From the IMG/VR virus record IMGVR_UViG_2713896907_000001, positions 1 to 22,891 of that record: 22,891 nucleotides of DNA; one strand, 5' to 3'. The DNA is from a virus (Duplodnaviria > Heunggongvirae > Uroviricota > Caudoviricetes). Of the stretch, positions 2,926 through 20,513 are shown piece by piece; within the stretch, counting starts at the first letter, position 1, and each line of letters opens with the position of its first letter. The notes beneath the pieces were generated by a model. The model worked only from the letters and a program-made list of their open reading frames with translations, had not been told where the DNA came from and ran no database searches. The position numbers were made by a program, and so were the translations under genes.

Positions 2926-3246
2926 ATGAGCAAGTTCCCTAGTCATGAAATGGATAGGTTCAATATCAGGCTTCCTGCAGGAATGCGGGATGCTATAGCT
3001 GAACGAGCAAAACGTAACGGCAGATCAATGAACTCAGAGATTGTTCAGATACTGGAAGATGCCTTGAATGCAGAAAATACACTCGGGGAAATAGCAGATA
3101 AAATCAACAGCGTCTCGGTTCCGCTAAATGTTGATGCGCTAGTTCAACTTCAAGCCCAGGTTATCGCCATGCAAAAAGAAATACAGGAAAAGTTCAGAGA
3201 GCAGAACGAAAAGTTGAGAGAACTGCTAAACAAAAAACCCACCTGA
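2926..3246 (+). CDS. Mnt/Arc-family ribbon-helix-helix repressor (paralog B, in the canonical mnt position)
   Basis: MSKFPSHEMDRFNIRLPAGMRDAIAERAKRNGRSMNSEIVQILEDALNAENTLGEIADKINSV... has the RHH core (FNIRLP ... NGRSMNSEIVQ) followed by a coiled-coil-like C-terminus. Divergent from arc, as mnt is in P22 immI. Confidence 0.7.
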   Translation: MSKFPSHEMDRFNIRLPAGMRDAIAERAKRNGRSMNSEIVQILEDALNAENTLGEIADKINSVSVPLNVDALVQLQAQVIAMQKEIQEKFREQNEKLRELLNKKPT

Positions 3247-3271: not shown

Positions 3272-3345
3272 GGACCATATTGACTACTTATAAAATGAGA
3301 TCAATATTTAATCGCCCAATAACGGGTATATGTTGAGGTATATCA

Positions 3346-3524
3346 TGGCGAAAAAACCAGGTGAAAACACAGGAAAAAACGGCGGAATATACCAAGAAGT
3401 TGGCCCACGCGGCGGTAAGAAAGACAATTTTGCAACCGTCAAGGACAACGAAAGGCTTCCACCAACAACAAAGCCAGGTCATGGCTGGGTATTGGATAAG
3501 CGAACTCCAGACAGCAAAAAGTAA
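3346..3524 (+). CDS. YjzC-like small protein
   Basis: From ATG at 3346 (GAGGT Shine-Dalgarno): MAKKPGENTGKNGGIYQEVGPRGGKKDNFATVKDNERLPPTTKPGHGWVLDKRTPDSKK. The KPGE..G.Y.EVG..G and P.T...H.W pattern resembles the YjzC-like family as I remember it. Has its own upstream region after the bidirectional terminator. Confidence 0.55.
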
Positions 3525-3537
3525 TAATCAAGCCGGG

Positions 3538-3903
3538 TCACTCCGGCTTTTTGATATGTCGCTCGCAGAACTCAACAAGCCTGCTCATTAAGTAGCAGTA
3601 AGTCTCGTTGGCTCTTCCTGGTTCAACATCAACACCTACCCTTGAGCAGATATCGAATGCCATGTGAGCGCACTCATGGGCAATAGTAGATAGTTTGCCA
3701 TTGAACACGCCTATCACATGCAAAACACCATTCTCGCTACTCATTGTATGAGACGCTCCGTTGGCGTCCGAGTCATGCACGTCAACGCCAAGTTTTTGAT
3801 GCAGGCGTTGCCATTCTGGAAAGTCTCTACAAAACACAATTGTACCGCTCTCAAAGAGCGGAACGAGCATCTTTGGTACGTTTCCAATGTTAACTTTTTT
3901 CAT
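3538..3903 (-). CDS. Small HExxH zincin-like protein (possible minimal ImmA/IrrE- or SprT-like metallopeptidase fold)
   Basis: From ATG at 3903: MKKVNIGNVPKMLVPLFESGTIVFCRDFPEWQRLHQKLGVDVHDSDANGASHTMSSENGVLHVIGVFNGKLSTIAHECAHMAFDICSRVGVDVEPGRANETYCYLMSRLVEFCERHIKKPE. HECAH motif, with a Glu 17 residues downstream and an ANETYCYLM segment reminiscent of the ImmA/IrrE E..AN.FA..LL motif. Confidence 0.5.
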   Translation of the reverse strand: MKKVNIGNVPKMLVPLFESGTIVFCRDFPEWQRLHQKLGVDVHDSDANGASHTMSSENGVLHVIGVFNGKLSTIAHECAHMAFDICSRVGVDVEPGRANETYCYLMSRLVEFCERHIKKPE

Positions 3904-3933
3904 GGTATCCTGCACAAAACTAAGGAGGTTGGT

Positions 3934-4323
3934 GTGAAGCGATTTCTTGCTGCTATGTTCTTATTCATATCTTTTGAGGCTACAGCAGAGTGCTGGGTCG
4001 TTGGAGATATGCGCGGAATAAGCTATTCAGAACGAAATAATTTCCATCCGGAAGAAGATGGTTTTAGTGGAACATTCATCATTAAGACAAGCGGTGAAGA
4101 TGCCAGCATCACATATTCTGGGACAGATGCGGGCGGCATGGCTTACAAAGCATTGTCTAAAAACTCCATCATAGGAATCGGCGCGAATGGCGAAACTCAA
4201 CGCGTTATCGACTCATGGGTAATACATCCTACTGGAACAGTTTTAATGTCAAAAACCATTTCCGGTTATGGAAATATGGATTCAACCAAAGCTTTTGTTG
4301 GAAAAGTAAAAAGAAAATGTTAG
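3934..4323 (+). CDS. Hypothetical exported protein with N-terminal signal peptide
   Basis: The track ORF 3718..4323 is antisense to the HExxH gene over its 5' half. The likely start is GTG at 3934, 5 nt after an AAGGAGG Shine-Dalgarno (3922-3928). Product MKRFLAAMFLFISFEATAECWVVGDMRG... has a basic n-region, hydrophobic core and ATA-E cleavage-like site; no lipobox. Confidence 0.5.
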   Translation: MKRFLAAMFLFISFEATAECWVVGDMRGISYSERNNFHPEEDGFSGTFIIKTSGEDASITYSGTDAGGMAYKALSKNSIIGIGANGETQRVIDSWVIHPTGTVLMSKTISGYGNMDSTKAFVGKVKRKC

Positions 4324-4347: not shown

Positions 4348-6222
4348 TTACTGCTGTGTTGCCTCAGTAGCAAACAGCGGTCTGATGGCATTCGCAGCGT
4401 TATTTAGCGCTCTTTCATAGGCTGGTGTTCCTGCTTTGGTGTTTGCCAAACGAAGAAGCATATTCCTTGCGGCTTTGGACTCATACAAACGCATCATTGC
4501 ACCAAAGCCAGCCTCAAGCCCCATTGATACTCCAAGAGTCGCAGTTGCGCCAATCGTCCTTATCCTGTTGGCTTGTGATTGCCCCGTCTGAGTTACTACA
4601 TTTGCGGTGTCTGACCTTGCTGTTTGCTGTAGAACTTCATGAAGAGCATCAAGCTCTTTCATGTGCTTTCCAGAAAAAATAGTGTTGTAAATTTCACCGC
4701 CTGACTGAGATTTAAGCTTATTAACTTCAGTGATGAACTTGGCTGGAGAGTCACCGGCCTTTTCCGCTATTTTGCTGACGTAAGCTGCACGCATAGCATC
4801 TTTCCCTTTATCATCCAATGCGCTCCAGATTCGTTTCACGTCAGATGGCTTTCTGCTTAATACAACGGTATTTATAAGTTCAGGACTGGCTTCACTGCTT
4901 GCCTTGTTGAGCTTGTTAGCAATGTTTTTATTAAGCACCTTATTATAAACGTTTGCATAATCGGAGTTTGCTTTAAGGTATTTTGCTGCGTCTGATGCAC
5001 CGAGGTTTTTTGCAACTGCGCTACGAAGATCTTTTGACATTGCATTCTCTACCATATTGGTAGCTGCTTTTGCCTGGTTGGGGAAGACCATAGCATCTCC
5101 CTGAACATTGGATCTAAATGCTGTTCTGTGCTGACGCAAGAGATCAAACGTAACATCCAAATCAGTTGCAGGGTTTGCTAATTCTTCACGTAGGTTACGC
5201 AAGGATGTAAGCAGGCTTTGATTGGCAGACGTCCCAAGCCGTTCCTGTCTTGCGATCGCTGTATTCAGAGCATTCATGGTATTTGTGGTATCAACTGCGG
5301 CATTACCCATTTTATTGGTGACGTCATTGATAACAGCGCCAGCGGCATCCTTCCGTCCCCTTAACGTGGTGGTCAGAGATTTCACCACATCATCAGGGTT
5401 GTACTCACCAAAACGGTCAAAATAATTGCTTACCAGCTTACTACGCGTTGCATATTGCTCCGCTCGCTTTGAGCCTGTCCCGAGCAAAGCCCCCTCAGCA
5501 TCCTGAGTAAGTCCGCGAGTGAAAGCATTTTTCGGCGGGATAACATCAGATGTCATTGGTGTCACGCCCATCGATTCTGATGTGGCAATTTTCTTCGCCA
5601 CTTCTGGCGCAATATCACCTTTTATAGCCGTTATTCCACGCCCTATTCCCTTTGCTGCTGCGGAAAGAACACCCTGAGCGGCAAGGTTAACTCCGGCATT
5701 TTTAGCTGCATTTTGTGCGAAATCACCTTTCTGATTTGCGGCCTCTGCCAGTGATCCAATAGCCATGCTTCCTGCCGTTCCAACTCCTGGAACTAAATAC
5801 CCGCCAATTGTTTCTCCAGCTTGAGCGTAGGGGTCTGTCGGTCTGTCTACTGGACGATAGACATCATCCAATACTTTTGGCCCACCAAGCCCCTGACTGA
5901 TTGCATTAATCAGACTTGCGCCACCCTGCAATACGTCAAATGGTATGTTTACCAGACCACGACCAGCCTGTTCTGCAATTTGCCCTGCACTTTGACCACC
6001 AGTGAGCCAATCGCCAGCTTGTTGCATCAATGATGGTTCTTCTTTCTGCTGCTGAGGCGGAGGGTATGCTGCATAAAACTGATCTCTTGCTTCAGCCCAT
6101 TTGTCACCAGCCTTAGGGGCAACAACCTCATCAAAATATTGCGCTTGAGCCTGTGCTTTCTGTTCTTCAGTTAACGCCTGATACTGTGGAGAAGCGATAA
6201 CATCTTTCCATGCTTTAGCCAT
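4348..6222 (-). CDS. Ejection (injection) protein, P22 gp16-like
   Basis: 624-aa ORF in the gp16 position, last of the 14-7-20-16 ejection block; size close to P22 gp16; Ala/Gly-rich low-complexity internal region typical of these proteins. Confidence 0.75.
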
Positions 6223-7571
6223 TAATCACCCCATAAAGACGAGAAACCGGACTTATTGCTGTCGCTTCCTGATTTTCGCTCACTAACATATGTGTCATAA
6301 CCTGATGAACTATATCCCATTGATTCAGCCTCCCTTGCTGCAACCTTTTGAAATACAGAATATTGCGATCGGATTTCAGATAACTGTTTTCTGACGACCT
6401 CTTCAGGCTGTGTTATATCGAGTTTCGCGATCAGGTTTTCCAGTTTTTGGCCTTCAGCATTGGAGAGGCTACCCATACCTCGCATAGTCTGCACGTTCTG
6501 GACAAACGCCCCCGACTTTAATTCTTCTATCGCATTACGGTTTGCAAGCCCTTCAGCACTTGTGAAGCCATCTATATTTCTTCCTTCGAAGCGACCAATA
6601 CCTTCAAGCTCCTTCTTACCAAGCAAAGAATCAATTTTCTCTATCCCTCGCTCACCAGTAATTAACGCATTGTTGTAATTATTGTTGCCATCAAGCCATC
6701 TCTTAGCCTGAGACATTCTGGCTGACGTTGCAGCTTTACCGGTTAGCGGATCAATTCCCGTCGCTGCTATCTGTGAGTTAAGAGACAAAACATCCATATC
6801 CTGAAGTTGTCCTGCTCTTTCAAGGGCCGCCTGTGACTGCTTAAACACATACTTGTCGTGATTCAGTCTTGCCATTTGAGCCTTATAGGAAAGATCCTGA
6901 CCCCTAATAGCCCTCGCATTCGTCATGTCATTATTGCGAATGGTTTCTTTAATTCTTTGCTGCTCCTGCTGGCGACCAACCATCTTATCCTGAACAGCAA
7001 ACGCCTTTTCTGGTCCAAGCGCACCGAGAGACATAGTAGTCAGCATGTGTGATAGCTGCTCTGGATTCTGGATACCTGTCTGAATCATCCAGTCAGCATT
7101 AGCGCCAACGCGATTTAACCTGTCCTTGTTGTCAGTAATGAATTTACTGTAGGCTTCCGGTCCCTGAGAAAGAGCGACGTTAGCTCTCATGGCTAAATCG
7201 CCCATATCGTTGCGTTGCTGCTCATTAAGACCGGAAAACGCCTGTTGTGCCTGCGCAACAAACGCTGGATTTTCCTTGGCAAACTTAAATAGTCCCGATG
7301 GATCACCAGAAGCCCATGCATCAGCATGAACCTTATTGAACGCATTAATCGCTTTCTGTTGCTGTTCCTGCTTATAAATATCAGCAACTCCAGCCAGACC
7401 ACGTAACGCGGTCAGACCAACGTTATTTGCACCTGAGCGAGCCAACTCATTGTTTTCGCGGATCAGACCAAGCGTTGCGTTAATGTCGCTTGCCTTTGGC
7501 GCATTCTCATTTTGCGTACCGATGCCAGCCAGAAAACCACCAGAATTAATACCCTGTTGCCACGTAGCCAT
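6222..7571 (-). CDS. Ejection protein, P22 gp20-like
   Basis: 449-aa ORF between gp7-like and gp16-like genes; stop overlaps the start of the next gene; size and position match P22 gp20. Confidence 0.75.
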
Positions 7572-20019: not shown

Positions 20020-20513
20020 TGCTGACCCCACAAACAGATTTCACGCTCAATCTCACGACGAGTCATGAGACCTTTCCATTGCTTACCGCCAGCGTATGTC
20101 CAGCGACGTAGCTGATCACATGCGCCTTTGATATCGCCCTGGTTTATTTTGCGAAGAAGCGTCGATGTTCTGAAATTGCCAGCGCCCACGTTGTAAACGA
20201 ACGAGTAAAGAGCGCCGCGCGTTGTTTCCGGTATATCAACTTTTATGTACGGGTTAATTTGTCTGGCGGCCGTGGCAAGGTCTTTATTCAGGAGGGCTTT
20301 GCATTCTGCTTCGGTATACGTTTTACCGGGAATGATGTCTTTTCCTGTATGCCCGTAACATACCGTCCATACACCAACTATGTCTTTGTAAGGATTATGT
20401 CTCACACCTTCCAGACCATCGTTACCACTTGGGCCAGTGATTAACACAGATGCTATGGCAATAGCCCCGCCACCAATAGCAGCAGCAACGGCTTTTCGTA
20501 ATGATGGAGGCAT
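20016..20513 (-). CDS. SAR endolysin (phage-21 R-type lysozyme)
   Basis: 165 aa; N-terminal weakly hydrophobic Gly/Ala-rich signal-anchor-release segment ([20 protein letters not shown]), then [23 protein letters not shown] with an E-8-D-5-T catalytic spacing; directly after the pinholin. Confidence 0.85.

Follow-up and report, generated by a model that had tools for sequence, protein, structure and literature searches.

The window, by which we mean the whole stretch of 22,891 nucleotides that was analyzed (IMG/VR record IMGVR_UViG_2713896907_000001), is a segment of a P22-like (Lederbergvirus) genome. Its minus strand carries a gp14-like DUF2824 gene, gp7 (PF25688), gp20 (PF16928), and a DNA transfer protein gene of the gp16 type (PHROG 770), and next to these late genes lies an immI-type region with Arc/Mnt-like repressors and an antirepressor. 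A short plus-strand gene, referred to here as Hex-like, diverges from a minus-strand ORF with an HExxH motif and converges on the gp16-type gene. The features of the locus are as follows.

3538 to 3903, minus strand: HExxH (HECAH) ORF of 121 aa, a homolog of P22 hkcC, starting at ATG 3903 and co-oriented with the late operon (PHROG 1365, E=1.7e-39).
3873 to 3903, plus strand: stretch corresponding to PsieA, mapped from the annotation of AF527608 and 100% identical to P22.
3903 to 3933, plus strand: conserved 31-nt leader, TGGTATCCTGCACAAAACTAAGGAGGTTGGT, with the Shine-Dalgarno sequence of the Hex-like gene, AAGGAGG, at 3922 to 3928 and a possible extended -10 element, TGgTATCCT, at 3903 to 3911.
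3934 to 4323, plus strand: Hex-like CDS of 129 aa, with GTG at 3934 to 3936 and TAG at 4321 to 4323, recognized from the ORF and from homology.
3934 to 3987, plus strand: putative signal peptide, codons 1 to 18, MKRFLAAMFLFISFEATA, recognized from sequence features, with a predicted signal peptidase I cut between A18 and E19.
3988 to 4320, plus strand: mature domain of 111 residues, a predicted antiparallel beta-barrel, with Cys20 at 3991 to 3993 and the C-terminal Cys129 at 4318 to 4320.
4348 to 6222, minus strand: gene for a gp16-type ejection (DNA transfer) protein, convergent with the Hex-like gene (PHROG 770, E=1.8e-276).

The 129-aa translation of the Hex-like gene reads MKRFLAAMFLFISFEATA/ECWVVGDMRG...KVKRKC, and a sequence-only reading of this DNA had taken it for a real gene encoding an exported, beta-rich protein with a Cys near each end. 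That description held up, with export as a prediction from sequence features: a set of 85 copies was drawn from 80 IMG/VR contigs, E. coli chromosomes, phages ST-35 and Emek, and the window itself, and 84 of them are intact, representing 39 alleles; dN/dS (Nei-Gojobori) is 0.255 over the whole gene and 0.13 in the mature part; and the layout of the locus and the predicted fold point in the same direction. The signal-peptide part, with a dN/dS of 0.51, is under relaxed selection. A longer antisense ORF as the conserved unit, the scenario that had been set against a real plus-strand gene, is excluded by the presence of at least five stops in each of the five other frames. The distance between the Hex-like start and the start of the HExxH ORF, earlier put at about 30 bp, is exactly 30 nt (3904 to 3933, with the complement CAT of the divergent start at 3901 to 3903). 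An in-frame start at ATG 3718, which would give a 201-aa ORF, was dropped in favor of GTG 3934 on the grounds of homology to P22 and the collapse of upstream conservation at -32. RefSeq models of Hex-family genes often begin at an internal Met, so that the signal peptide is missing and the export signal is hidden from automated annotation.

The genes of this region are named sieA, hkcC, and 59a in P22 (PMC2629481), and comparison with that phage places the Hex-like gene exactly. A megablast search of phage records matched window positions 3300 to 3936 to P22 and about 60 relatives at 98% identity, with the match ending at 3936; the matching stretch of P22-pbi (AF527608) holds orf59a, the t-mnt terminator, the annotated PsieA, and the first codon of sieA. 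When the window, P22, and ST-35 were aligned, all three were identical from 3850 through the sieA GTG at 3934 to 3936, the annotated start of P22 sieA occupying the same position as the Hex-like GTG; right after this codon, the window and P22 are unrelated, and weak similarity resumes at the 3' end of gene 16. Identity through the GTG followed by divergence from the very next base marks the Hex-like ORF as an exact replacement of sieA that keeps the upstream signals and the start codon, and the stop of the gp16-type gene, 24 nt past that of the Hex-like gene, forms the right boundary of the slot. A tblastn search with P22 SieA (type A) at E values of up to 10 gave no match in the window, and no type A SieA homolog was found in the 80 loci; compared with type A, the window protein is not a SieA homolog, though it probably works in SieA's place.

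Across the IMG/VR collection, the Hex-like gene converges in about 73 of the 80 loci on a gp16 homolog whose end always falls at +417, counted from the Hex-like start. Within this constant frame, the gp16 homologs vary between 51 and 100% identity and those of gp20 between 27 and 99%, and the fact that such different gp16 and gp20 types travel with the Hex-like gene makes a poor fit to a highly specific ejection-protein target. The upstream neighbor varies among loci, being hkcC with orf59a in 17 and other genes elsewhere, and the HExxH ORF of the window has copies of 98 to 100% identity in 17 related loci. The Hex-like gene is carried, always on the chromosome, by 147 of 5,426 complete E. coli genomes; gp7 DNA is detectable in 1,176 of the 5,426, and about 1 in 8 E. 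coli genomes with a P22-like prophage therefore has the gene. For sieA itself, only about a third of sequenced P22-like phages are carriers (PMC10883804).

The leader that precedes both genes is sharply delimited: positions -31 to -1 are 85 to 100% conserved among 46 distinct upstream contexts, conservation is at background level at -32, and the leader upstream of P22 sieA is identical to that of the window. Its complement, AGGATACCATG, supplies the Shine-Dalgarno sequence and the ATG of the divergent ORF, so that the ORFs on both sides abut the same 31- to 33-nt linker. For P22 sieA, a single copy inserted at galK together with 85 bp of upstream DNA is enough for full exclusion (PMC10883804), and the window is identical to P22 over that 85-bp stretch. 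A simple scan for the sigma-70 consensus found no site in this region. Two candidate -10 elements were considered, namely, T(T/A)TCAT at -39 to -34, which is that of the P22 annotation and overlaps the divergent start codon, and TGgTATCCT at -31 to -23, the only one of the two that is conserved in all contexts; we infer that the 31-nt leader has a promoter role. The sequence-only reading had located each promoter inside the other gene. This stands for the plus strand, where the PsieA stretch falls within the 5' end of the divergent HExxH ORF, but not for the minus strand. The late operon of P22 reads on through immI to gene 9, and the HExxH ORF, being oriented like the late operon (gp7-gp20-gp16), would be served by this read-through and needs no promoter within the Hex-like gene. 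With the same leader, Shine-Dalgarno sequence, and GTG as P22 sieA, the Hex-like protein is most likely produced in the lysogen at a low, constitutive level.

The N terminus of the product consists of an n-region, MKR, an 11-residue hydrophobic core, FLAAMFLFISF, and Ala at -3 and -1 before E19. A lipoprotein reading of the window protein was dropped, as E at -1 of Cys20 leaves no lipobox; lipobox-like sites occur in 7 of 109 full-length Hex-family relatives. In all but one of these family members (108 of 109), a charged n-region and a hydrophobic core lead up to a small-x-small site and then to x-C-[WYF], and 104 of the 109 have a Cys within the last 10 residues. The family architecture drawn from the alignment (a signal peptide, a Cys at mature position 1 or 2 with an aromatic residue, a beta domain of about 110 residues, and a C-terminal Cys) is present in its entirety in the window protein, whose export is a strong prediction from these features. 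AlphaFold2, run on a 79-sequence alignment, returned a model with a pLDDT of 93.1 and a pTM of 0.81, in which an N-terminal helix (the signal peptide) is followed by an all-beta antiparallel barrel of about 8 strands (8 to 9). The first and last strands pair, so that Cys20 and Cys129 should be adjacent, and the topology of the model together with the conservation of both residues suggests that a Cys20-Cys129 disulfide closes the barrel. Structure prediction and comparison with lysozyme inhibitors had been named beforehand as informative checks: the former gave a confident beta-barrel and the latter gave no specific match. Searches of Pfam, PADLOC, and PDB sequences with the window protein produced no match.

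A soluble barrel of this kind could bind a ligand or interact with the host (in the manner of lipocalins, avidin, or NHBA) or inhibit lysozyme, and the gene would then serve the lysogenic conversion of host physiology or virulence. We regard this as improbable, given that all matches lie at 5 to 19% identity, the level expected for any 8-stranded meander barrel, that no Pfam match was obtained for the MliC/PliC profiles or any other, with PliC scoring below generic barrels, and that the genomic contexts are phage or mobile-element slots of the defense type. Less probable still is a small outer-membrane barrel (OmpX/OmpW/NspA/PagL-like) that changes the cell surface or hides a secondary receptor. 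A 434-type homolog is labeled "PagP" in one phage record, but several of the predicted strands, at 5 to 7 residues, look too short to span a membrane, the C terminus is KRKC rather than an aromatic beta-signal, and the conserved disulfide and the charged residues at alternate strand positions fit, as judged from sequence, a soluble barrel.

By sequence and architecture, the window protein is a member of the phage 434 Hex/Sf6 gp38 family. Both it and 434 Hex match PHROG 2651, which has no annotated function (E=1.6e-60 and E=1.4e-58, respectively), and BLASTP aligned the two at 28% identity over 133 columns (E=7e-13). A tblastn search of phage genomes matched the window protein, at 28% identity over 100% of its length, to the ORF just downstream of repressor cI in 434, lambda imm434, Sf6 (gene 38), HK446, HK633, Sf101, and others, and found near-identical copies among those genomes only in Salmonella phages Emek and ST-35. 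The Emek record itself already mentions similarity to Sf6 gene 38. A weak tblastn match of 434 Hex within an ORF of the endolysin region (window positions 20112 to 20225, E=0.028) was judged to be due to chance. Profile searching of 1.84 billion representative proteins returned 126 clusters, nearly all of 120 to 140 aa, and across these roughly 126 representative clusters the family looks secreted, with a predicted signal peptide followed by what would be a disulfide-stapled eight-stranded barrel. The Hex family is absent from PADLOC. The surroundings of its more distant members are those of mobile elements (a resolvase, zeta toxin, ParE/PaaA2, or BstA), and relatives at 22 to 24% identity adjoin large convergent ORFs, which share only a weak PHROG 21143 match and gave no significant pairwise BLASTP match to gp16.

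What the window gene lacks is the cI-adjacent, PRM-cotranscribed position; it lies between gp16 and immI, with no repressor gene adjacent to it. In all 80 loci of the canonical 434 type, hex and imm434 cI overlap by 4 nt, and one phage, IMGVR_UViG_648276644_000012, contains both clades (loci L067 and L155). Linkage to cI marks the 434-type clade rather than the whole protein family.

The name Hex stands for "heterologous exclusion" and derives from the exclusion of P22: according to PMC3564112, which cites Susskind and Botstein (1980), Salmonella lysogens of lambda-imm434 exclude P22, and hex- lysogens do not. Homology to 434 Hex, added to a place in the sieA slot behind the P22 sieA leader, makes a stronger case for the envelope-level exclusion that the sequence-only reading had put forward as a guess. 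A different role was assigned to the protein by Shkilnyj et al. (2013), who found that hex- lambda-imm434 lysogens release or induce about 30-fold more phage in a recA-dependent manner, that RecA-stimulated cleavage of both the 434 and the P22 repressor is inhibited in vitro by sHex, a fragment of 61 residues and 6 kDa, and that overproduced full-length Hex is lethal (PMC3564112). The ends of sHex were left without explanation by the authors, and the words signal, membrane, and periplasm are absent from the text (PMC3564112).

These results, and the cotranscription of canonical hex with the cI gene that it overlaps, favor a cytoplasmic stabilizer of lysogeny, which would protect the prophage C2/cI repressor from RecA-stimulated autocleavage and lower spontaneous induction. 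For the window protein, we consider such a role quite unlikely. A periplasmic location is indicated by the signal peptide and terminal Cys pair found throughout the family, and the window gene is free of repressor linkage and sits in an exclusion slot common to membrane proteins. The published fragment itself can be read in another way. It begins at E43 of the published 158-aa ORF, which is the residue after the predicted cut ANS/ECW (N103 also fits the published numbering), and it corresponds to residues 19 to 79 of a 134-aa protein, spanning only about the first five predicted strands. Because sHex is partial, was purified through GuHCl, and acted in micromolar excess, its effect in vitro may be nonspecific. 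The coincidence of its N terminus with the signal peptidase site suggests that Hex is exported and that signal peptidase generated this end, and predicted export argues against the physiological relevance of the inhibition of repressor cleavage. The N terminus of sHex at the signal peptidase site and the lethality of full-length Hex were both counted toward export. The export signal and the N terminus of sHex, with the signal peptide and putative disulfide found across the family, suggest that the published cytoplasmic mechanism deserves reexamination. A search for literature on Hex, or on Hex at the sieA locus, found nothing besides PMC3564112, and Hex goes unmentioned in a review of superinfection exclusion from 2024.

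One variant of the gene keeps different company. A copy with 89% identity lies 19 nt downstream of a periplasmic immunity gene of the Rap1a/Tai family (PF18602) in E. coli APEC20/16 and in 14 IMG/VR loci, and the same pair, at 67% and 47% identity, occupies a nonprophage island in the chromosome of Silvania confinis; the neighboring gene in other loci matches PF18602 at E=1e-14. The Rap1a-paired variant has an ATG start and a different signal peptide, and the search of genome contigs for related loci yielded a single locus. This pairing hints at defense against bacterial toxins rather than phages, and immunity proteins are typically small, periplasmic, and disulfide bonded. The gene could then be a prophage fitness gene that provides periplasmic immunity against an interbacterial or host-derived toxin acting on the envelope, such as a bacteriocin or a T6SS cell-wall effector. 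We think this rather unlikely, though less so than the other alternatives: no cognate toxin or T6SS gene was present in any context examined, 70 of 84 copies have the sieA-type leader without Rap1a, and the Silvania confinis pair adjoins EH_Signature and SNF2 genes that resemble those of the antiphage proteins ZorC and ZorD. Moreover, the one phenotype reported for the family is phage exclusion.

The leader is not confined to sieA and the Hex-like gene. Scanning IMG/VR for the exact leader, TGGTATCCTGNNNAAAACTAAGGAGGTTGGYGTG, gave at least 120 loci, and among the matches listed the ORFs that start at the leader GTG belong to at least 12 unrelated families. Hex-like cargo is the most frequent among the matches listed (at least 22 loci), followed by PHROG 5962 (at least 20), PHROG 8100 (at least 18), and SieA type A (at least 11), with eight smaller families accounting for at least 47 loci in total. 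Again among the matches listed, an N-terminal hydrophobic segment is present in 11 of the 12 cargo families, SieA is the only family with a known function, and in 111 of 119 cases a long convergent ORF occupies the gp16 position no more than 150 nt beyond the cargo ORF. The leader is thus a shared socket for mostly membrane or exported proteins from at least 12 ORF families.

We suggest that the Hex-like protein is expressed in the lysogen, is exported by Sec, and forms a disulfide-stapled barrel in the periplasm, where it excludes superinfecting P22-like phages at the stage of DNA delivery and functionally replaces SieA, and we give this reading a probability of roughly 0.55. The proposal starts from computational results on the reality of the gene, its slot, its family, its signal-peptide and disulfide architecture, and its barrel fold, and from these we infer expression in the lysogen, a periplasmic location, exclusion, and a target. 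The Hex-like gene has replaced sieA, ORF for ORF, between the last ejection gene, gp16, and the immI region and would be expressed constitutively at a low level in the lysogen. Its product, an antiparallel barrel of about 12 kDa, would be exported by Sec to the periplasm and probably stapled by Cys20-Cys129. There it may bind something that the incoming virion must deploy in the periplasm, so that the DNA is kept from the cytoplasm; candidate targets are the trans-envelope conduit of gp7, gp20, and gp16, the needle, a virion wall hydrolase, or a host envelope partner. The phages excluded would be P22-like and perhaps others. Counted against the periplasmic exclusion reading were the cytoplasmic role that the family's only biochemical paper gives to Hex (PMC3564112), the absence of the family from PADLOC, the Rap1a pairing, and the fact that 28% identity to Hex is no guarantee of the same target.

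The two lines of argument can be combined in a more ambitious and more tentative proposal, to which we would give somewhat less than an even chance. The sieA leader would be a standard socket at which the ORFs on both sides are exchanged with codon precision, serving a changing set of envelope-targeted proteins from at least 12 unrelated families that would represent a largely unexplored entry-blocking arsenal; Hex would be one periplasmic exclusion factor within it, and the published model of Hex as a RecA antagonist would be an artifact of an unfolded fragment generated by signal peptidase.

We know of no description of what P22-like phages without sieA use instead, and the Hex-like gene is a concrete candidate for exclusion in these phages; the exclusion of P22 by Hex and its exclusion by SieA may reflect one selective role. 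The shared leader also flags a dozen uncharacterized membrane or periplasmic proteins as likely entry-blocking factors, and factors of this kind would be of use in studies of phage host range and in phage therapy directed at E. coli, Salmonella, and Shigella. The Hex family is known but poorly understood; the more novel elements here are the socket and the apparently secreted nature of the family.

Several known systems offer points of comparison. Rap1a/Tai proteins are small and periplasmic, as the Hex-like protein is predicted to be, and in Silvania confinis and some of the prophages a Hex-like gene directly follows the gene for one of them, but the window protein has no PF18602 match and there is no Rap1a gene in the window. 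P1 Sim and T4 Spackle also come from phages and carry an export signal at the N terminus; working in the periplasm, they block incoming phage DNA or the tail lysozyme, and the likeness lies in the kind of mechanism proposed for the Hex-like protein. Their targets are P1 entry (Sim) and the T4 gp5 lysozyme (Spackle) rather than P22-like podophages, and to our knowledge neither is related to the Hex-like protein in sequence or fold.

The closest relatives by sequence, 434 Hex and Sf6 gp38, share with the window protein its size, the putative signal peptide followed by an xCW N terminus, and the C-terminal Cys, and 434 Hex is likewise encoded by a temperate lambdoid or P22-like phage at a prophage-expressed position. 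The 434-type and window-type clades are, however, only 28% identical, and whereas hex is fused to the imm434 cassette and transcribed from PRM, the window gene lies about 25 kb away, in the sieA slot and behind its own leader. In protein type, P22 SieA is the more distant: it is an inner-membrane protein with 3 to 4 transmembrane segments, no cleavable signal sequence, and a cytoplasmic FxRYPxEAxxFNK motif (PMC10883804). The window protein, in contrast, has one N-terminal hydrophobic segment with a cleavage site, the remainder being a predicted soluble-looking barrel, and lacks the FxRYPxEAxxFNK motif. Like sieA, the window gene lies between gene 16 and gene 9, converges on gp16, and starts with the same GTG behind the same Shine-Dalgarno sequence and 31-nt leader; the expression pattern and selective role are presumably shared as well.

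The amino terminus of sHex, the published active fragment of phage 434 Hex, is residue E43 of the 158-aa ORF (434 hex, locus L006, 2429-2908) and falls exactly at the predicted signal peptidase I site, ANS|ECW; export was not considered by the authors of that work (PMC3564112). In annotated Hex-like proteins the export signal can be invisible, because RefSeq/PGAP models place the start at an internal methionine, Met8 in WP_096246949.1 (L009, 6022-6390) and Met26 in WP_002432306.1 (L010, 6027-6341), so that the signal peptide is shortened or gone and, with the Met26 start, Cys20, the predicted disulfide partner of the conserved C-terminal Cys, is missing too. Among the 85 collected copies of the gene, the sole non-intact one is that of Salmonella phage ST-35 (L002, CP051279, around 3985-4000), in which one nucleotide is deleted from an A-run near the 3' end (aligned to window positions of about 4305-4315); the resulting frameshift alters the protein's final residues, and the conserved C-terminal Cys is lost.

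The Hex-like gene also occurs in a two-gene module, found in 14 P22-like IMG/VR contigs, in E. coli APEC20/16 and, in diverged form, in the Silvania confinis chromosome. Its first gene encodes a periplasmic immunity protein of the Rap1a/Tai family; the second, 19 nt further on, is Hex-like but starts with ATG and has a different signal peptide:
L010, 5601-5936 and about 5955-6341, Rap1a/Tai gene, then Hex-like gene
L079-L091, same order
L011, 5646-6387, same order

In Silvania confinis the module adjoins ZorC/ZorD-like genes (EH_Signature, SNF2). The exact 34-nt sieA leader with its GTG start stands upstream of at least 12 unrelated ORF families in IMG/VR (L178-L297); among the matches listed, 11 of 12 families carry an N-terminal hydrophobic segment and 10 are uncharacterised (PHROGs 5962, 8100, 7294, 21338, 10450, 19844 and 21022, and three without a PHROG). 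The region between gp16 and the tailspike appears to be a general site of moron accumulation. In the prophage of E. coli STEC383 (L009, 4975-8205) this region is enlarged by added cargo near the Hex-like gene, including a YafO-family toxin immediately upstream of it and a P63C-domain protein, among others.

A Hex-like gene in the sieA slot (L067) and a cI-linked, 434-type hex (L155), paralogs that are 28% identical, lie together on the 41-kb phage contig IMGVR_UViG_648276644_000012, which suggests that their specificities are non-redundant. Both types are present in two further host genomes, there on separate contigs.

The neighboring part of the window, including its immI region, contains the following:
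554-892, 2641-2829 and 2926-3246, three Arc/Mnt-type ribbon-helix-helix ORFs
1128-1940, 270-aa ORF with no assignment
1941-2651, Bro-N/P22_AR_C antirepressor
3530-3549, GC-rich hairpin AAGCCGGGTCACTCCGGCTT, counterpart of P22 t-mnt, lying between two convergent reading frames, the orf59a-like gene and the HExxH ORF
3538-3903, minus strand, HExxH ORF, homolog of P22 hkcC (PHROG 1365), divergent from the Hex-like gene

Since only the plus strand of the hairpin carries a T-run, the hairpin should, from its sequence, end rightward mnt/orf59a transcription and terminate leftward (late) transcription poorly. Judged by its motif, the HExxH ORF could encode a minimal metallopeptidase made from the late transcript: HECAH is followed by a Glu 20 residues past the second His, the spacing found in thermolysin-type gluzincins, and phmmer matches to the active-site regions of thermolysin and neutral protease were all nonsignificant (E values of 0.09 to 0.66). 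The immI region of P22 itself is smaller than that of the window and is otherwise organized.
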